A model generated the notes under the pieces. It was not told the DNA's origin, ran no database searches, and saw only the letters and a list, made by a program, of their open reading frames with translations. From the NCBI GenBank assembly GCA_015233115.1, contig JADFYJ010000016.1, positions 499-61,481 on the forward strand: a DNA stretch of 60,983 nt, written 5' to 3'. Every line of letters starts with the position of its first letter. Within the stretch, counting starts at the first letter, position 1. The stretch is from Candidatus Omnitrophota bacterium. GTDB lineage: Bacteria; Omnitrophota; Gorgyraeia; Zapsychrales; Zapsychraceae. Shown piece after piece: positions 14,925 to 57,264 of the stretch. Made by a program: the position numbers and the translations under genes.

Positions 14925-14998
14925 CGCGCCTAGAGGGAGTCGAACCCCCGACACCTGATTCCGAAGACCAGTGCTCTATCCAACTGAGCTATAGGCGC
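14925..14998 (-). tRNA. tRNA-Arg(UCG), CCA end not encoded
   Basis: Minus strand GCGCCTATAGCTCAGTTGGATAGAGCA-CTGGT CT TCG GA ATCAG-GTGTC-GGGGGTTCGACTCCCTC-TAGGCGC-G forms a full cloverleaf. Confidence 0.96.
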
Positions 14999-40567: not shown

Positions 40568-41725
40568 TTATGATAATTCAAACATCGCCTTCATCCCGTT
40601 CATGATCAGATGAAACGGAACGACGGAAACTTTCTTATGAAGCTCATACCGCTTCTGACCGGGGTAAATAACCGCAATACGCTCAAGTTTTAAATCTTCC
40701 AGAGCAATTCGCATGGACGGCGTCATGGTCGGTGCGTCTTGACGCTTGATCTCAACGCCATACATCCGCCCGCCTTTAAACAAAATCAGATCGATCTCCG
40801 CGCCTTGATGAGTCGCCCAAAAATACACATCATCCGGCTCAATCGCGTGGATGACCTCTTCGATCACAAACCCTTCCCAAGACGCGCCGCAACTAGGGTG
40901 ACGCGGAACATCCGCTGCGGTCTTTATCCCAAGCAATGAATTAAGAATCCCCGTGTCTCGAATATAAATTTTCGGTGCCTTGACCTGACGCTTTTTGATA
41001 TTCGCATACCACGGCTGGATCTGGCGAATCATGAACAAACCCGTCAAAATATCCAAATACTTCCGCACGGTCGGCTGGCTTAATCCAAGAGAGGTCGCAA
41101 AAGGCGCAGCATTCCATATTTGTCCGTGACTGTGCGCGAGCATGGTCCAAAACCGATGCAAAGCAACCGTCGGTACATCAATCCCCTGCTGGCGAAGATC
41201 CCGCTCAAGAAATGTCTTTATAAAACTGTTCCGCCAAGCAAAGCTATCCGCATCGCTCTTGGCAAGGAACGACAACGGAAATCCGCCCCGTGACCAAAGA
41301 GATGATGATTTCTTCTCTCCCACCTCGGACAGATTGAACCCGTCCATTTCGATCAATTCAAGACGTCCGGCAAGAGATTCGGAAGATTGTCTTAATAGGT
41401 CAGGTGAAGCGCTTCCAAGGATCAGAAACTTAGCAGGTAACGGCGTACGATCTAACAATACTCGCAGGATTGGAAATATTTCTGGACGCCGCTGAACTTC
41501 ATCAATAACAACCAGTCCCTTTAAAGGGGCAAGCGCGGTCTTAGGATCAGCCAAACCGATCAGGTTGGAATTGTCTTCAAGGTCAAAATAATTGGGAGAA
41601 TCAATATCAACAAACTCCCGCGCCAAGGTGGTCTTGCCGCACTGACGCGGCCCCAATAAGGCTACTGCTCGGCTTCGGCCTATCGCCTTCTCAATATACT
41701 CTTTGTAAGCGTATCGTTTTATCAT
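40568..41725 (-). CDS. AAA+ ATPase (AAA_14 type) with DUF4143 and C-terminal PD-(D/E)xK-like domain
   Basis: GPRQCGKTT, IDEVQ, LGSAS, SESLAGR, RGGFP, KAPKIYIRDTG, GASWE, EIDLI...VEIK. Confidence 0.9.
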   Translation of the reverse strand: MIKRYAYKEYIEKAIGRSRAVALLGPRQCGKTTLAREFVDIDSPNYFDLEDNSNLIGLADPKTALAPLKGLVVIDEVQRRPEIFPILRVLLDRTPLPAKFLILGSASPDLLRQSSESLAGRLELIEMDGFNLSEVGEKKSSSLWSRGGFPLSFLAKSDADSFAWRNSFIKTFLERDLRQQGIDVPTVALHRFWTMLAHSHGQIWNAAPFATSLGLSQPTVRKYLDILTGLFMIRQIQPWYANIKKRQVKAPKIYIRDTGILNSLLGIKTAADVPRHPSCGASWEGFVIEEVIHAIEPDDVYFWATHQGAEIDLILFKGGRMYGVEIKRQDAPTMTPSMRIALEDLKLERIAVIYPGQKRYELHKKVSVVPFHLIMNGMKAMFELS

Positions 41726-45075: not shown

Positions 45076-46437
45076 TTATATTTTTGCCAACACTTCTTTC
45101 CCTAATTTTGTGATATCTCCGGCGCCTAGGGTTAAAACCAGGTCTCCCGGACGCGCCAAACCCAAAATACATTCTAATAATTTATCACGATTGACGTAGA
45201 TTACTTCATTTTTTGTAATTTTTTTCATGGAGTCCACAAAAACCTCTGCGCGGATGCCTTCTATCGGCTGTTCACTGGCCGCGTAAACATCCGTAACCAG
45301 TAAAACATCGCATCCTTCGAAACATGTGAGGAATTCATTCCATAAATGCTTCAAACGGGTGTACCGGTGCGGTTGAAACACGGCCACCACTCTTTGGATC
45401 TTCTCCCCCTTTAGCGAACTGGCTACTTGGCAGGTGGCTTTAATTTCCGTCGGGTGATGGGCATAATCATCGTAAACCGTTATGCCGTTTTTTTCTCCGA
45501 TCAGCTGAAATCTCCGCTCAACTCCGCGGAAACTTTCCAAGGCCTTTACAATATCGTCAAATTTAATGCCAATTTCCAAACAGACAGCCATGCACGCCAG
45601 CGCGTTGATAATATTATGCCGGCCCGGAACATTTAAAATAACCTGCCCCAAAACTTCATTATCCAGCACGCAATCAAACTGGCTTTGCAGTTTATTGATC
45701 CATACATTCTCCGGATGGATTAAATTTTCTTTATTAAGCCCAAAAGTAACAAATGACCGGCCGCTTTTTTTCGCGATTGCCATTAAATTCGCGTCATCCC
45801 CGCAGAGAAAAATCATGCCCTGTTTGCTAGTCTGTTCTAAATATTGTTGATACAATTCACCGATATGATCGAGATCCCGGTAAAAATCCATATGTTCCCG
45901 GTCCATATTGGTGATCACGGAATAATCCGGATGAAAAAATAAATGAGTGCCATCGCTGTCATCCACTTCTGCGACAAAATAATTTCCTTCTCCCAATGCG
46001 ATATTAGTCGAAAGCGTACGGACAATCCCGCCGATAGCGCCTGTAGGCGATAAGTTATTCACCTGCAGAGTATGCAATATCATCGACGAAGTGGTTGTTT
46101 TGCCATGCGCGCCAGTCACCGCAATATTTTTGTAATCTTTCATCAATTGCGCCAACAACTGCGCGCGGCGCAGAACTGGAATATTTTTTTCCCTAGCAAC
46201 AACGATTTCCGGATTATCCGCTTTGATCGCTGTGGATACAGCTACGAAATCCGGATTTCCCACATGGGACGCCTGATGCCCAATGGTAATCTCTGCCCCC
46301 TGCTTGCGCAGCATCACAATCATGTCATTTTCTTTCACATCCGACCCCGTGACTTTATATCCCGCCGCCAAAAGTAATCCAGCCAACCCACCCATCCCTA
46401 TACCGCCAACACCTACCAAATGATAATGCTGTTTCAT
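45076..46437 (-). CDS. murC: UDP-N-acetylmuramate-L-alanine ligase
   Basis: GVGGIGM, GAHGKTTT, DDYAHHPTE, FQPHRYTR, GAGDI. ATG 46437 overlaps the upstream TGA (ATGA). Confidence 0.96.
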   Translation of the reverse strand: MKQHYHLVGVGGIGMGGLAGLLLAAGYKVTGSDVKENDMIVMLRKQGAEITIGHQASHVGNPDFVAVSTAIKADNPEIVVAREKNIPVLRRAQLLAQLMKDYKNIAVTGAHGKTTTSSMILHTLQVNNLSPTGAIGGIVRTLSTNIALGEGNYFVAEVDDSDGTHLFFHPDYSVITNMDREHMDFYRDLDHIGELYQQYLEQTSKQGMIFLCGDDANLMAIAKKSGRSFVTFGLNKENLIHPENVWINKLQSQFDCVLDNEVLGQVILNVPGRHNIINALACMAVCLEIGIKFDDIVKALESFRGVERRFQLIGEKNGITVYDDYAHHPTEIKATCQVASSLKGEKIQRVVAVFQPHRYTRLKHLWNEFLTCFEGCDVLLVTDVYAASEQPIEGIRAEVFVDSMKKITKNEVIYVNRDKLLECILGLARPGDLVLTLGAGDITKLGKEVLAKI

Positions 46438-47228
46438 TTTCTCTCCAAATAATCGACCCAATTGTCATTTAGTCGCTTGATACTGCGCACCTGAGGATAT
46501 ACTTTTTCCAGTACCGGTTCAAAAGAAAATCCTTCCTTAAGTTTTTTACACAGCCGAAAAAATCGGACATCTTCGTATTCATTAATTAAAAAATTAACCG
46601 CACTGGCAGATTCTTCGTAAAACAAATCCACCTCTGTTTTGGATATCTCATGGGTTAACTGCATTTGTGATAATTGTGCCAAAGTTTTAAATCGTTTATT
46701 TTTTATCGCCTCTTTCACATATTGATCTGAACCATACCGTTTAGCCTTTTCCTGATTCATCGCTACACCTTCTTCCAGCCATAAAGGAATTTCCGTCTCA
46801 AACCCGATCACTTCCCGAAAAATAATGTGCCCTAATTCATGAGGCAGGACCGAATCAAAAAAACCATTTTCAGCCGGAAAGGTGCGAATTGTTTTATCCT
46901 TTGCGTGCGCCACTCCGCTCGACCATGGAAAACCTTTTAAAGCCGCCACATAGTCATCATGGTTCGGGTAAATATAAATTTTGGCCCGATCATCCAAAGT
47001 CCAGGGCACTTCACTGCTCATCCCCAAATTTTCTTTAATCGTTCTAAAACACTCTTCTGCCGACTCTTGAACAGTTTTAACCAAATCATAAGGAACATTT
47101 TTGTAATAAACTAAAAAATGCCGCGTCCGTTCTACAGACCAGCCTTCAGGAACGTCCACCCGCGCCCATGCCTGGATAGTCATGGAAAAAAATAAAATTA
47201 ATAATAAGATTAAACTGCATTTATACAT
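46434..47228 (-). CDS. Exported zinc metallopeptidase (peptidase MA / gluzincin-like)
   Basis: Signal peptide, TRHFLVYY, HELGH and downstream PLWLEEGVA. Confidence 0.8.
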   Translation of the reverse strand: MYKCSLILLLILFFSMTIQAWARVDVPEGWSVERTRHFLVYYKNVPYDLVKTVQESAEECFRTIKENLGMSSEVPWTLDDRAKIYIYPNHDDYVAALKGFPWSSGVAHAKDKTIRTFPAENGFFDSVLPHELGHIIFREVIGFETEIPLWLEEGVAMNQEKAKRYGSDQYVKEAIKNKRFKTLAQLSQMQLTHEISKTEVDLFYEESASAVNFLINEYEDVRFFRLCKKLKEGFSFEPVLEKVYPQVRSIKRLNDNWVDYLERK

Positions 47229-47253: not shown

Positions 47254-47721
47254 TTAAAAATTAAAATGTCCTTGCGGATGTTCTTTTTTGATTTCCTCTT
47301 TAATAATTTTAATAAATTCACAAGCTGATTCTAAAGCGCTTTTCGCGTCAGTCATAGAAACATGAAACTTCCAAGGCTCATAAATAAAATTATTACGGTT
47401 TTTACGCATATAATCAAACTTCTCAGTCAACGCTTTATATCTATTCCCTAAAAAGTAGGACGCAAAACTAACAACTGTTTTATGCTGGAAATTAGTTGTA
47501 GGCCGAAAACCTTTCACAAACACAAAGGCCCTTGCCGCATGAAGCATCGCGGTATAAGCCGTTTCGTAAGCATGCCCTTCATCAATCGAAAGCAATTTTT
47601 CTGAAACCTGAAGATTTTTTTCAGCGCTGTTCATGACTTTCTCTATCTGATCAAAGCCTATCTTCTCCGGCTTTATCAGATTCTTTTCTGTATATTCATT
47701 TAAAAATTCTTTAGAGGTCAT
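47254..47721 (-). CDS. HEPN-domain protein
   Basis: AY.AM.HAARA, H..V and R..RN...Y (RxxxxY variant). Overlaps the upstream MNT gene by 11 nt. Confidence 0.8.
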   Translation of the reverse strand: MTSKEFLNEYTEKNLIKPEKIGFDQIEKVMNSAEKNLQVSEKLLSIDEGHAYETAYTAMLHAARAFVFVKGFRPTTNFQHKTVVSFASYFLGNRYKALTEKFDYMRKNRNNFIYEPWKFHVSMTDAKSALESACEFIKIIKEEIKKEHPQGHFNF

Positions 47722-48283
47722 CTTTGCTTCCTTTAATAAATATTTTCTTGCCCTTTATGACCTCTAAAACAAAAGAATTTTTTTTCTTTTTCTCTTTTTG
47801 ATACTCGCCATTTGTATAACGGGTATAATTAATTTCTTTAAACAATTTTTTCTCAAGATTACTAATATTGATCACCAACTTATCTTCATCAATGTCATCG
47901 CCGATCAAAAATATATCTATATCGCTATCCTGCCGCTCTTCCCCCTTAGCAAAAGACCCGTATATAAAAGCAGCCTTGACTCCGTTTATCTTAATTAAAC
48001 AGTCTTGTACCAGTTTTATCACGCCTGCTGTTTTATAAACGATATTTTTTAATTCTTCATAAACCGGATTTTGCTTATTCAAATAAAAAAGCTTAATGTT
48101 GCCAACCTCCCGCACATTAAGGATCCCTAAAAAAATAAGTTTCTTAATCTCCCGATGCAGAGTCCCTACAGACATTTTGTGCATCGACGCCAGTTGTCTT
48201 GTGTAGTACTCATTTCCCGGATTGCTAAAAAAAGTATTTAATAAAACTTGCCGCGTTTTTGATCCTAATAGACCAGACAACAT
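47711..48283 (-). CDS. wHTH plus minimal nucleotidyltransferase (MNT) protein
   Basis: N-terminal HTH (SKTR..LL..FF.NP..EYY.RQLA) and IYGSFAKG.....SDIDIF (GS...DxD). Confidence 0.88.
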   Translation of the reverse strand: MLSGLLGSKTRQVLLNTFFSNPGNEYYTRQLASMHKMSVGTLHREIKKLIFLGILNVREVGNIKLFYLNKQNPVYEELKNIVYKTAGVIKLVQDCLIKINGVKAAFIYGSFAKGEERQDSDIDIFLIGDDIDEDKLVINISNLEKKLFKEINYTRYTNGEYQKEKKKKNSFVLEVIKGKKIFIKGSKDDL

Positions 48284-53372: not shown

Positions 53373-54737
53373 CTATAATGTTTTAAAATATTGTTTTAAG
53401 AAATCCACCACGCGTTCCATTTTCATGCCGCGTGAACCCTTCACCAACACGACGGCATTTGATTTCGCGCATAATAATTTCAACCGTGCTTCGATTTGTT
53501 GGAGTGTCTGGCAAATATAAACTTTTTTTGAATTCAACTTCTTTACAGCCTGGCCAATGAAAGCCGCCCCTTCACCTAAAGTGACGACCGCGTCAATATC
53601 CGTCTCATTAATCGCTTCACCAACCGAACGGTGCTGCTCCGCGCTGCCTTCCCCTAACTCCAGCATGTCCCCGCACACCATGATCTTTTTTAACCCCGCG
53701 GGCCATTGTCCTAATGTGGCAACAGCACTGCGATAAGATACGGGATTGGCATTATACGTATCATCAATCACCATACTCTTGTTTATAGCATAAAAATTCT
53801 GCCGTCCGTCAGGATTCTTAAATTTTTTTAGTCCGTTCTGAATCGCGTCATCCGGCACTTTCAACAATTTTCCGCACACCAAAGCCGCTAAGGCGTTATA
53901 AACGTTGTGAATCACCGGATCATTCAGAATAAATTTTTTATTTTGGACCGTAAAAGAAATATTTTCTTGCTGTTGAATGTGTTCCGCCTGATAATCGCTT
54001 TTTTGTGCCACGGAATAGCTCACTCGAGAAAAATGATATTTGTCTGAAGCCAATTTCCGTAAAAATTTATTATCCGCGTTATAGACGACCACACCGTTTG
54101 ACCGCATAAATTTAACCATCTGACTTTTTTCCCGGAACACGCCGAGTTCGCTGCCCAAGCCTTCCAAATGAGATTCTCCAATCGCGGTAAAAACACATAT
54201 TGTGGGCGCTGCTATCCGCGCTAAACCCGCGATCTCTCCTTTATGGTTAGTCCCCAGCTCTAATATAAGGACGCGGTATTCTTTCCGTAATTTCAAAATG
54301 GTCAAAGGCACGCCAAATTGATTATTAAAACTTTTCGCGCTCTTTAACGCCTGATACCGCGTTGATAAAACCTCCGCGATCATATCTTTCGTCGTAGTTT
54401 TCCCCACGCTCCCTGTAACCGCGATCACTGGAATATCAAATTTACTCCGGTAATAACGGGCTAAATCGCCGAGAGCTTGAGTCGTATCTTTCACTTTAAT
54501 GACCACAATCTTACGCGGACATACCACATCCTCAGACACCAGCATGACAGACACACCTTTTTGCGCCACTTCATTAACAAACGCATGCCCGTCGAATTTC
54601 TCCCCTTTAATCGCGATAAATAATTCACCAGGTTGAACAGTTCGTGAATCCGTCGATACCCCCGCCACCAAGCCGGTCTTTACCTCACTGATCACTTGAC
54701 CATTAACCGCTTTAATAATTTCTCTAATTGTTAACAT
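53373..54737 (-). CDS. murF: UDP-MurNAc-tripeptide D-Ala-D-Ala ligase
   Basis: STDSR, FDGH, TGSVGKTTTK, NN.FGVP, DDTYNANP.S, GDMLELG, KGSRGM.ME. Confidence 0.96.
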   Translation of the reverse strand: MLTIREIIKAVNGQVISEVKTGLVAGVSTDSRTVQPGELFIAIKGEKFDGHAFVNEVAQKGVSVMLVSEDVVCPRKIVVIKVKDTTQALGDLARYYRSKFDIPVIAVTGSVGKTTTKDMIAEVLSTRYQALKSAKSFNNQFGVPLTILKLRKEYRVLILELGTNHKGEIAGLARIAAPTICVFTAIGESHLEGLGSELGVFREKSQMVKFMRSNGVVVYNADNKFLRKLASDKYHFSRVSYSVAQKSDYQAEHIQQQENISFTVQNKKFILNDPVIHNVYNALAALVCGKLLKVPDDAIQNGLKKFKNPDGRQNFYAINKSMVIDDTYNANPVSYRSAVATLGQWPAGLKKIMVCGDMLELGEGSAEQHRSVGEAINETDIDAVVTLGEGAAFIGQAVKKLNSKKVYICQTLQQIEARLKLLCAKSNAVVLVKGSRGMKMERVVDFLKQYFKTL

Positions 54738-54781
54738 ACCAACCCAATCTTAAATTAAATTTGAATTTATTAATAAAAAAA

Positions 54782-55678
54782 TCATTTTCCACTTTTCCAC
54801 AATGGCGACTCTTTCCAGTTATTTAAAAATCCCATAACCTCATAAAAGTTAGGAATAGCAACAGGTTGACTTAATAATGAATTCACCTCAAAATGCCACT
54901 CATCCCTAATCCGTTGTTCTATAGGTAATTTGGATAAAAAATTGTTAACCGCGAAAACAACTGACCCCACACGCTTTGTATTTATATCATGCCACCCATC
55001 ATGTTTAGGAACAACCATAGCAATGGCTAGTTCCCTATTCCATATTCTGCTATGATGCGCGCAAATATTACGGATATAAGTAAAAGTATGAAGCCACGAG
55101 GATACAACGGTAGAATGGTACCCGATAATTTGAGCTAAAGCGATCTGATCATCCCGAAGCAGATTGTGGTAAAGCTGAGATAAAGACCCAAACGACATAA
55201 CTTCAACGGCCATCCATAAAGGCAAATGCGGAAATTCTTCATATTTATTCTTATAATGATCAATAAATGTTTCTTTCGACCGGACAGTCTCGTCATGAAT
55301 CTTGGTAATCCATTCCGCGTGCTTGGATTTATCAAAAAAAATTTTAGCGTCCTCGTGAACAAAAGCCCCATATTTACGCGCCAAATAATACGAAATAGTC
55401 GAACGCACAGAAATTTCAATAACTTCGAGAGCTTCGTCAATCAAAAAACGTAACCGGCGATCAAATTCGTAAAGTTGTTGTATTCGTTCAAATGTAACGC
55501 CAGAATGGAATTGGTGACGTTTCAATTCAAAAGGCAGACAATACGCGCTGAAACGATAATAACTAACCTGACTCAAAAATTTCTCAGACTTTGACGGATT
55601 GGCAATTATAAGGCCGCGGCTGGCAAGTAGATTTATTTGTTTATCATACGAAAGAGGGGGCTTGTTATATTTTTCCAT
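54782..55678 (-). CDS. Abi_2 family (AbiD/AbiF-like) HEPN ribonuclease
   Basis: KPPLS...QI.LL.SRGL, SYYRFSAY, YEFDRRLR, PLW...EVMSFG.LS, HEPN motif RNICAH followed by HSRIWNR. Confidence 0.92.
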   Translation of the reverse strand: MEKYNKPPLSYDKQINLLASRGLIIANPSKSEKFLSQVSYYRFSAYCLPFELKRHQFHSGVTFERIQQLYEFDRRLRFLIDEALEVIEISVRSTISYYLARKYGAFVHEDAKIFFDKSKHAEWITKIHDETVRSKETFIDHYKNKYEEFPHLPLWMAVEVMSFGSLSQLYHNLLRDDQIALAQIIGYHSTVVSSWLHTFTYIRNICAHHSRIWNRELAIAMVVPKHDGWHDINTKRVGSVVFAVNNFLSKLPIEQRIRDEWHFEVNSLLSQPVAIPNFYEVMGFLNNWKESPLWKSGK

Positions 55679-55691
55679 AACACTCCCTTAA

Positions 55692-55754
55692 GAAAAGAAA
55701 AACCCGCCCAAAATGCGCACTAAGCCGAAGCTCAGGAGGCGTGGCGGGTATGTT
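55692..55754 (-). ncRNA. Candidate abiF-type structured RNA (putative antitoxin or leader)
   Basis: ACCCGCC/GGCGGGT closing stem, internal UGAGC-UUCG-GCUUA hairpin, GCCUCC and GUGCGCAU internal segments, then a U-rich tail just before the RBS. Confidence 0.7.
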
Positions 55755-55760
55755 GATCAT

Positions 55761-55789
55761 AATATACCCGATCTTGTTAAAGAAGGCAA
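55761..55789 (-). promoter_or_regulatory. Internal sigma70 promoter for the RNA plus abi gene
   Basis: TTGCCT (55789-55784), 17-nt spacer, TATATT (55766-55761). Confidence 0.65.
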
Positions 55790-55806
55790 CCTCTTTTATT
55801 TTTCTT

Positions 55807-57264
55807 TTAACCATTTTTCAGAATTTCCCTTACGACCAACCGTTCATCATAATCAATCGTCTTATCTCTAAATATCTGATACGTTTCATGACCTTTGCCG
55901 GCCAAGAGAACAATATCCCCCTTTTTCGCTGACCCTAAAGCTTTTCGTATCGCTTCAGTACGATCAACTTCAATCATAAAATTTTCTTTCGCAAAACCTT
56001 TCACCACTTCATCAATAATTTGCCGTGGTTCTTCACTGCGCGGATTATCTGAAGTCACAACACAAATATCCGCCAATTCTCCGGCGATTTTTGCCATTTT
56101 AGGGCGTTTGATTTTATCCCGGTCTCCGCCGCAGCCAAAAACCAGAATAATTTTTCCATGAGGTAAACGGCGGACGGATTCCAGCACATTTTTTAACGCG
56201 TCGTCCGTGTGAGCGTAATCAATAAAAATCAAATAATCTGTCCCGCATTCTACCTTTTCCAGCCGGCCCTTAACCAGATCACATTTCAAAATACCCTGCT
56301 GTATAAATTTTGGATCAATATTTTCATTGAGCGCGGCTGACGCGGCTGCCAGAATATTATAAATATTATGTTTCCCAATTAAACGTGTTTCAAGCGGAAA
56401 AGTCCCTCGAGAATGAGCAAGATTAAACTTGGATCCGGACGCGTCCATTTGAATATCAACCGCCATCACTTCCGCCTTATGATCAATGGCATATCCCATA
56501 ACTTTGGCTTGAGTCATACGGCCTAACCGTTCGCCCATCTTATCATCCATATTAATAACCGCGAATGATTTGGGGTGCAAGTGTGTAAAGAGCTTTGATT
56601 TTGCCAAAAAATATTCTTCTTCCGTCTTGTGATAATCCATATGATCCTGCGTCAAATTCGTAAACAACGCTTGACGAAAATCGATCAGATCGACGCGTCC
56701 TTGGGCCAATCCATGAGACGAAACTTCCATGGCGCAATATTTCATCCTGTGATCGCGCATGAGAGCAACATATTTTTGAATATCCACCAGCCCCGGTGTA
56801 GTATTTTTTGCCTCAATCACATCATCGCCGATCACATGCTGAATCGTCCCCATAATCCCACAAGGCTGTCCTGCTTCCTGAAAAATTGACCGCAATAAAT
56901 ATGTGATGGTCGTTTTGCCATTGGTTCCGGTAATCCCTAAACAGCACACTTGGCCTGACGGATGGCCGTAAAATCTGTCTACAGCCTGGCGCAAAATTTG
57001 CCCGGGATTTGACACATGAACATACAAAATGCCGTCTTCAACCCGATACCCGGCAATCCCATTCTGAACCACAGTTTTGGCGCCGCGGAGCACCGCATCT
57101 TTAATAAATTGTTCCCCGTTCTTCACGCTCCCTTCCACCGCAAAAAATAAACAATCCGTCTCTGCCAGCCGCGAATCACAGACCACCACAGAAATTTCCC
57201 GCGCCCCCAAATCATGAGGCAATTGACAGGTAATTTCTGCTGGTAATATTTTTTTTAATTTCAT
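55807..57264 (-). CDS. murE: UDP-MurNAc-dipeptide meso-DAP ligase
   Basis: GITGTNGKTT, NTTP, MEVSSHGL, TNLTQDHMDYH, DYAHT, FGCGGDRD..KR, DNPR (DAP-type), AGKGHE. Confidence 0.96.
   Translation of the reverse strand: MKLKKILPAEITCQLPHDLGAREISVVVCDSRLAETDCLFFAVEGSVKNGEQFIKDAVLRGAKTVVQNGIAGYRVEDGILYVHVSNPGQILRQAVDRFYGHPSGQVCCLGITGTNGKTTITYLLRSIFQEAGQPCGIMGTIQHVIGDDVIEAKNTTPGLVDIQKYVALMRDHRMKYCAMEVSSHGLAQGRVDLIDFRQALFTNLTQDHMDYHKTEEEYFLAKSKLFTHLHPKSFAVINMDDKMGERLGRMTQAKVMGYAIDHKAEVMAVDIQMDASGSKFNLAHSRGTFPLETRLIGKHNIYNILAAASAALNENIDPKFIQQGILKCDLVKGRLEKVECGTDYLIFIDYAHTDDALKNVLESVRRLPHGKIILVFGCGGDRDKIKRPKMAKIAGELADICVVTSDNPRSEEPRQIIDEVVKGFAKENFMIEVDRTEAIRKALGSAKKGDIVLLAGKGHETYQIFRDKTIDYDERLVVREILKNG

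Follow-up and report, generated by a model that had tools for sequence, protein, structure and literature searches.

A predicted AbiF-type RNA-antitoxin cassette between murE and murF of a Candidatus Omnitrophota bacterium

The cassette and its protein

In the 60,983-nucleotide stretch of Candidatus Omnitrophota DNA analysed here (hereafter referred to as the window), an open reading frame (ORF) of 298 amino acid (aa) residues separates two full-length cell-wall genes, murE and murF. All three are located on the minus strand, in the order murE (57288–55807), a gap of 128 nt, the ORF (54782–55678, with its ATG at 55678 and its stop at 54782), a gap of 44 nt and murF (54737–53373). Comparison with relatives, as presented below, defines the stretch from the murE stop to the murF start (54738–55806, minus strand, 1,069 bp) as the entire insertion.

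The 128-nt gap contains, on the same strand, a sigma70-type promoter match, TTGCCT-17-TATATT (55761–55789), with its −35 element TTGCCT at 55789–55784, its −10 element TATATT at 55766–55761 and a 17-bp spacer between them, which scores 9/12 and is positioned 6 nt upstream of the AACA sequence at which the leader starts. This promoter is followed by an abiF-type RNA of approximately 60 nt (55694–55756, AACA from 55754), delineated by a homolog-derived model, folding and covariation and predicted to act as both antitoxin and attenuator. Its P1 stem, formed by ACCCGCC (55749–55743) and GGCGGGU (55708–55702), encloses a P2 helix of CGC (55741–55739) and GCG (55718–55716) as well as a variable cUUCGg hairpin (55735–55720); a CAUUUUG bulge is also part of the RNA, and a U-rich tail extends from 55702 to 55691. 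The ribosome-binding site AAGGGAG (55683–55689) is located 4 nt upstream of the ATG. An initial annotation of this DNA had proposed a promoter with 17-bp spacing, an RNA of about 60 nt with this stem, hairpin and U-tail, and a ribosome-binding site preceding an Abi_2 gene with an intact RxxxxH motif, and all of these elements are indeed present on the minus strand.

The 298-aa protein matches Pfam Abi_2 over the whole length of the model (E = 5.8e-55) and the PADLOC AbiD profile over 289 residues (E = 1e-76), while no family was found for it in NCBIfam. PbAbiF (PDB 8VZ6) is its sole significant solved-structure relative by sequence (E = 8.9e-41). The structure predicted for the protein (pLDDT 94.3) matches 8VZ6 with a TM-score of 0.85 (E = 1.1e-17, 30% identity), and the comparison with the PDB returned no other match at E ≤ 0.001. 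Alignment with PbAbiF places R203 and H208 of the HEPN motif RNICAHH (R203-N-I-C-A-H208-H209, residues 203–209) opposite the catalytic residues R210 and H215. Among the 60 sequences aligned of the 120 homologs listed, R203, N204, C206, A207 and H209 are invariant, while H208 is conserved in at least 90%.

A genome-wide search identified this as the single Abi_2 gene of the genome. Near homologs of the protein exist at 81–86% identity, and the closest named ones, at 72–73% identity, carry the label Candidatus Omnitrophica, which, the gene being mobile, constitutes weak evidence as to lineage. An AbiF homolog frame of approximately 398 aa, with some 75 extra internal residues, was observed in another genome (L254 1279–2469, minus strand, G141), where an abiF-type RNA is still located upstream.

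The leader RNA and its promoter

Comparison with the Rfam abiF model, as suggested in the initial annotation, yielded a sub-threshold match only: RF03085 is the top match in the gap (55748–55702) with 21.4 bits (E = 0.22), against a gathering cut-off of 37. At gathering, abiF is not called anywhere in the window, the sole match being a tRNA; a single tRNA gene is present at 14925–14998 (minus strand). The core of the leader, CCCGCCA-GCCUC...GC-CA-U-GGCGGGU, fits all 37 positions of the model, and the score remains at 21.4 bits because an insert of 17 nt in the leader takes the place of 8 nt in the model. Among 20 homologous loci, 7 pass the gathering cut-off of RF03085, mostly with short-loop forms, and 13 are missed.

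The 66-nt core folds with an energy of −22.3 kcal/mol, and the z-score of the fold varies with the boundaries chosen, being −3.1 for this core and −1.1 when all 128 nt between the genes are included. A standard terminator scan did not call the leader stem, as its 7 bp close a stretch of 34 nt and not a short loop, while a promoter scan of the window sequence alone returned 5 sites versus 4.9 in shuffled sequences, which is chance level. It is the comparison with homologs that lifts both the fold and the promoter above chance.

For this comparison 173 homologous loci were gathered, 167 of which had sufficient upstream DNA (six being too short), resulting in 133 distinct leaders. A pattern consisting of a stem strand, GCCYY, the second stem strand and a U-tail was found in 71 of these, as against 1.5 (maximum 5) in shuffled or resampled controls. 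Covariance model R1, built from the alignment of the 71 pattern-bearing leaders with the window's sequence held out, assigned 62.4 bits to the window's leader and 12.6 bits to the runner-up match; outside its seed it matched 47 of 62 leaders at E ≤ 0.04, every one of them at the gene start. An abiF-type RNA is consequently found ahead of 118 of the 133 distinct homologous genes, while neither the pattern nor R1 matched the leaders of the other 15. Since the seven Rfam-passing leaders are contained in the seed of the homolog-derived model, the wider leader set is tied to RF03085. R1 did not reveal a second antitoxin copy in the genome among the 150 of 418 candidates that were scored.

Standard pairs occupy 98% of the pair cells in the 71-leader alignment, a proportion to which P1 contributes in a circular manner, its pairing having been chosen by the search pattern, and 8 of the 10 pairs vary on both sides. 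The first P2 pair, which was not subject to this selection, is C-G, U-A, A-U, G-C or G-U in 63 of 69 distinct rows and unpaired in six, with two-sided change in 28 of the 69 sequences. The unpaired AACA, CUC and A after P2 are invariant or at least 90% conserved across the 71 leaders, and the UUCG hairpin represents a variable insert that is different or missing in many homologous leaders.

The register of the promoter was assessed in 110 of 117 leaders, which were anchored and had 45 nt of upstream sequence. A sigma70 match of at least 9/12 ending 3–8 nt before AACA is present in 56 of the 110, compared to 1.3 (maximum 5) in shuffled sequences, and among the 65 leaders scoring at least 8/12 the distance to AACA is 6 nt in 55 and the spacer 17 bp in 51. 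The promoter of the window has exactly this modal register (6 nt, 17-bp spacer), although it scores only 9/12 and its −35 element is weak. As it shares the register of its homologs, the predicted promoter is very probably real.

Two further observations concern the distribution of this RNA. In a group of AbiF homologs on viral contigs (L137–L158 and L161; 33–35% identity) no leader match was obtained for L137, L149–L151, L156 and L161, and such homologs may have a longer leader or be controlled by a different element. Two of 40 relatives in which no Abi_2 gene was found also contain the RNA motif, each time with 56–58 bits: in G038 (L247 1501–1565, minus strand) a DUF3800 gene lies approximately 210 nt downstream of it, and in G014 (L248 1501–1554, minus strand) it precedes, by approximately 90 nt, a short ORF of the RhuM family close to which a MazF-like pair is situated. 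Motif and toxin are therefore separable, and the leaders lacking an Abi_2 gene could be remnants, orphan antitoxins or elements reused by other genes. DUF3800 genes are described as associated with many RNA motifs by Weinberg 2017 (PMC5737381), in the main text of which the word 'abiF' is absent.

The insertion site within the dcw operon

In larger stretches of 37 related genomes, murE is followed directly by murF in 36, and in 28 of 29 murF loci of relatives the distance from the end of murE to the start of murF ranges from −26 to +18 nt, as opposed to 1,069 nt in the window; murE and murF of the same-genus genome G001 share a 14-nt overlap. The cassette of 1,069 bp is thus an insertion, with both flanking genes whole and the site empty in 36 of the 37 relatives. 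In the exception, G014, this junction is occupied by a type I restriction-modification cassette of 9.4 kb. The GC content of the insert is 38%, that of murE and murF 43–44%. No terminal repeats or target-site duplication were found around the insert, and the TTAA present at both of its ends is uninformative, one being the required murE stop and the other falling within the murF start.

Abi_2 is present in 1 of 40 relatives, and among 400 genomes of the class six have a match over the cut-off (some of these six loci may overlap DNA among the 173 homologous loci); an abiF-type RNA accompanies all six, and none of four sub-cut-off matches. The neighbours of these abiF genes, as judged from ORF translations, are varied and often belong to restriction-modification or other defence systems, with no mur genes among them, and no other abiF copy examined is located at a murE–murF junction. 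The best explanation is that the cassette was acquired horizontally and landed at this junction, leaving both genes whole. Going by titles, no literature was found on abiF or toxin-antitoxin cassettes within the division/cell-wall (dcw) operon or at murE–murF, and in passages of an Omnitrophota preprint (10.64898/2026.06.07.730766) Abi, dcw and murF are not mentioned.

The insertion places a predicted terminator inside the dcw operon, upstream of murF to ftsA. A strong promoter match, TTGACA-17-TATATT (60899–60871), is located ahead of mraZ, while between the leader and murF no minus-strand promoter match of at least 9/12 with 16–18-bp spacing was found, but only weaker or oddly spaced ones. 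Expression of murF to ftsA is therefore likely to depend on read-through of the leader terminator, by transcripts from the operon and cassette promoters, or on a weak internal promoter.

This arrangement could be taken to mean that the cassette regulates or locks the expression of murF to ftsA by means of an upstream hairpin that lets operon transcripts pass the terminator while cassette transcripts stop. Such a hairpin can be drawn: CGGGUAU (55770–55764) pairs with AUACCCG (55751–55745) at −8.0 kcal/mol, which is possible only in transcripts begun upstream. Of 5 pre-P1 snapshots, 4 have this competitor as their minimum-energy fold (partly displaced in one), and the fifth contains it within its fold. 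Its 7-bp match is longer than in all 110 homologs (maximum 6), and the lack of a promoter match of the above quality extends to the minus strand between abiF and murF. At equilibrium, however, P1 prevails with a probability of 0.82–0.96; a competitor of equal or stronger energy occurs in 7 of the 110 homologs, and competitors located behind a co-directional gene do not exceed the others in strength (medians −0.85 versus −0.91 kcal/mol, p = 0.27, 50 versus 53 loci). In addition, the 5′ arm of the hairpin is largely the −10 consensus itself, and the murE–murF junction is, as stated above, peculiar to this abiF copy among those examined. A regulatory or locking role is accordingly improbable, and an antiterminator acting on read-through transcripts only was unsupported when tested on the 110 homologs.

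A broader proposal would have the AbiF cassette hard-wired into an essential operon, where the read-through-only antiterminator couples cell-wall expression, toxin dose and antitoxin supply, and where defence cassettes of the lineage repeatedly find a safe harbour at dcw junctions. This is unlikely; if true, silencing of the cassette would carry a cost, the leader being a checkpoint in the dcw transcript. Defence cassettes within dcw clusters number three in this genome and others occur in 3 of 37 relatives, one of them exactly at murE–murF. The cluster is not established as a special hotspot, many such cassettes being present elsewhere in the genome, and the cassette families were picked after the window had been seen, so that these counts provide no valid enrichment statistic.

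The dcw cluster of the window and its relatives displays several other features. An HTH-nucleotidyltransferase and HEPN pair (47254–48283, minus strand; PADLOC PDC-M05A, E = 1.6e-53, and Pfam HEPN; 34–35% GC) follows murG, at a spot occupied by a DUF559 gene in G001, and an AAA_14/DUF4143 ATPase gene (40568–41725, minus strand) follows ftsA, the genome having 12 DUF4143 matches. In G014, murE and murF are separated by a type I restriction-modification system that includes a DUF3800 gene (L046 2649–11777, G014:C6), and ftsW and murG by an AbiE pair, while in G023 four genes, one of them RhuM/Fic, are placed between murD and ftsW; the further cassette positions in these two genomes are L234 5370–7044 and L222 9382–13033. 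Together with G001, these genomes make up the 3 of 37 relatives mentioned above. A Peptidase_MA_2 gene between murG and murC (46434–47228, minus strand) is retained in nearly all relatives covering the region and is thus a lineage-specific member of the cluster. The genes that come after ftsA encode a response regulator and a U32 peptidase, both here and in relatives where the stretch is traceable, and an ORF of ftsZ size was not observed in between.

Relation to known systems and proposed mechanism

AbiF systems with an RNA antitoxin have already been described, the AbiF proteins of a Prevotellaceae bacterium and of C. difficile having been characterised in 2025, and the present copy is another member. 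In sequence and predicted structure, the locus fits this family by every tested feature except the Rfam cut-off. PbAbiF–AbiFr (Prevotellaceae bacterium; Zilberzwige-Tal et al., Cell 2025; PDB 8VZ6) shares the length and fold of the window's AbiF, and each has one upstream ncRNA motif per gene; they differ in that protein identity is 30% and that the window's leader has an extra UUCG hairpin, AbiFr being compared by its description in reviews only. These reviews (PMC12737573, PMC13064643) present PbAbiF as an AbiF with an upstream ncRNA whose structure was solved in the RNA-bound state, and an R210/H215 double mutant is reported as inactive in the Discussion of 10.1101/2025.04.15.648962.

AbiF(Cd)–RCd22 of the C. 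difficile phi027 prophage combines promoter, abiF-motif RNA, terminator, ribosome-binding site and Abi_2 gene in one unit, as does the window. It is likewise inserted within a host gene module, between holin and endolysin, and insertion of this kind is therefore not new, although the site is a prophage lysis module there and a chromosomal cell-wall operon here. RCd22 (98–132 nt) contains two motifs and a separate terminator hairpin, whereas the window's leader contains one motif, the P1 stem of which itself runs into the U-tail. In C. difficile, R202/H207 mutants of AbiF are non-toxic, and the RNA provides rescue in trans as well as co-purifying with the protein (10.1101/2025.04.15.648962). 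With the lactococcal AbiD/AbiD1/AbiF group the window's protein shares its fit to the PADLOC AbiD profile (E = 1e-76); phage defence was shown in that group and is putative for the present copy. Control in the lactococcal systems is described as requiring a conserved upstream sequence (review PMC13064643).

Two other types of system were considered and rejected. Type III toxin-antitoxin systems of the ToxIN/AbiQ type are discounted by the lack of tandem RNA repeats, there being a single RNA copy in window and genome and no array near the gene. Cas13 (type VI CRISPR) systems have an adjacent CRISPR array and two HEPN domains per chain. Neither Cas13 nor its miniature forms are indicated here, as no CRISPR repeat was found at Rfam gathering in the window and no array at 54600–55950, and the protein is one 298-aa chain with the AbiF fold.

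Protein family, motif, fold, RNA, promoter register and empty site all support the earlier reading of the locus as an AbiF RNA-antitoxin (type III-like) cassette. Sequence, structural model and analogy together make it highly likely that the cassette is a toxin-antitoxin unit of this type that has a promoter of its own and was introduced at the murE–murF junction. Its mode of action may be proposed since two AbiF relatives, from Prevotellaceae and C. difficile, have been characterised. The cassette promoter would yield an abundant RNA of approximately 60 nt ending at its own stem and U-tail; most transcripts would stop at this tail while a minority would read through into abiF, resulting in an excess of RNA over protein. 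AbiF would, judging by its likeness to 8VZ6, dimerise with R203 and H208 at the interface, and the RNA would bind the dimer and block its RNase activity. Where phage infection or stress tips this balance, free AbiF would cut RNA and arrest growth.

It is very improbable that the leader acts in cis only, as a transcription attenuator that lowers abiF expression without neutralising the protein. The stem does run straight into a U-tract 12–24 nt ahead of the start codon, and in C. difficile the RNA cuts toxin expression 17-fold in cis, its deletion raising abiF expression by that factor (10.1101/2025.04.15.648962). The conserved unpaired AACA, CUC and A after P2 would, however, be needless for a plain terminator, and both the rescue in trans and co-purification of the C. 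difficile RNA and the ncRNA bound in the PbAbiF structure argue for an interaction with the protein. There is equally little likelihood that the host carries the cassette as a passenger, silent or in decay, with an intact sequence yet unexpressed or non-toxic. The scarcity of Abi_2 among the 40 relatives, the weak −35 element and the many similar small cassettes in the genome (12 DUF4143, 8 Polbeta-type MNT and 4 HEPN matches) would suit a passenger, but the full-length ORF retains all invariant residues, the RNA pairs are intact, the promoter has the modal register and near homologs exist at the identities given above.

As an RNA-antitoxin cassette, this AbiF copy is unusual only in its site between two essential cell-wall genes. 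The long-hairpin form of the abiF RNA escapes the Rfam cut-off (13 of 20 loci), and the RNA family is thus wider than annotated. The modest value of the present locus as an example lies in its being a minimal, one-motif cassette whose natural boundaries are given by the empty site, and it raises the question of how essential genes located behind an inserted terminator are expressed.
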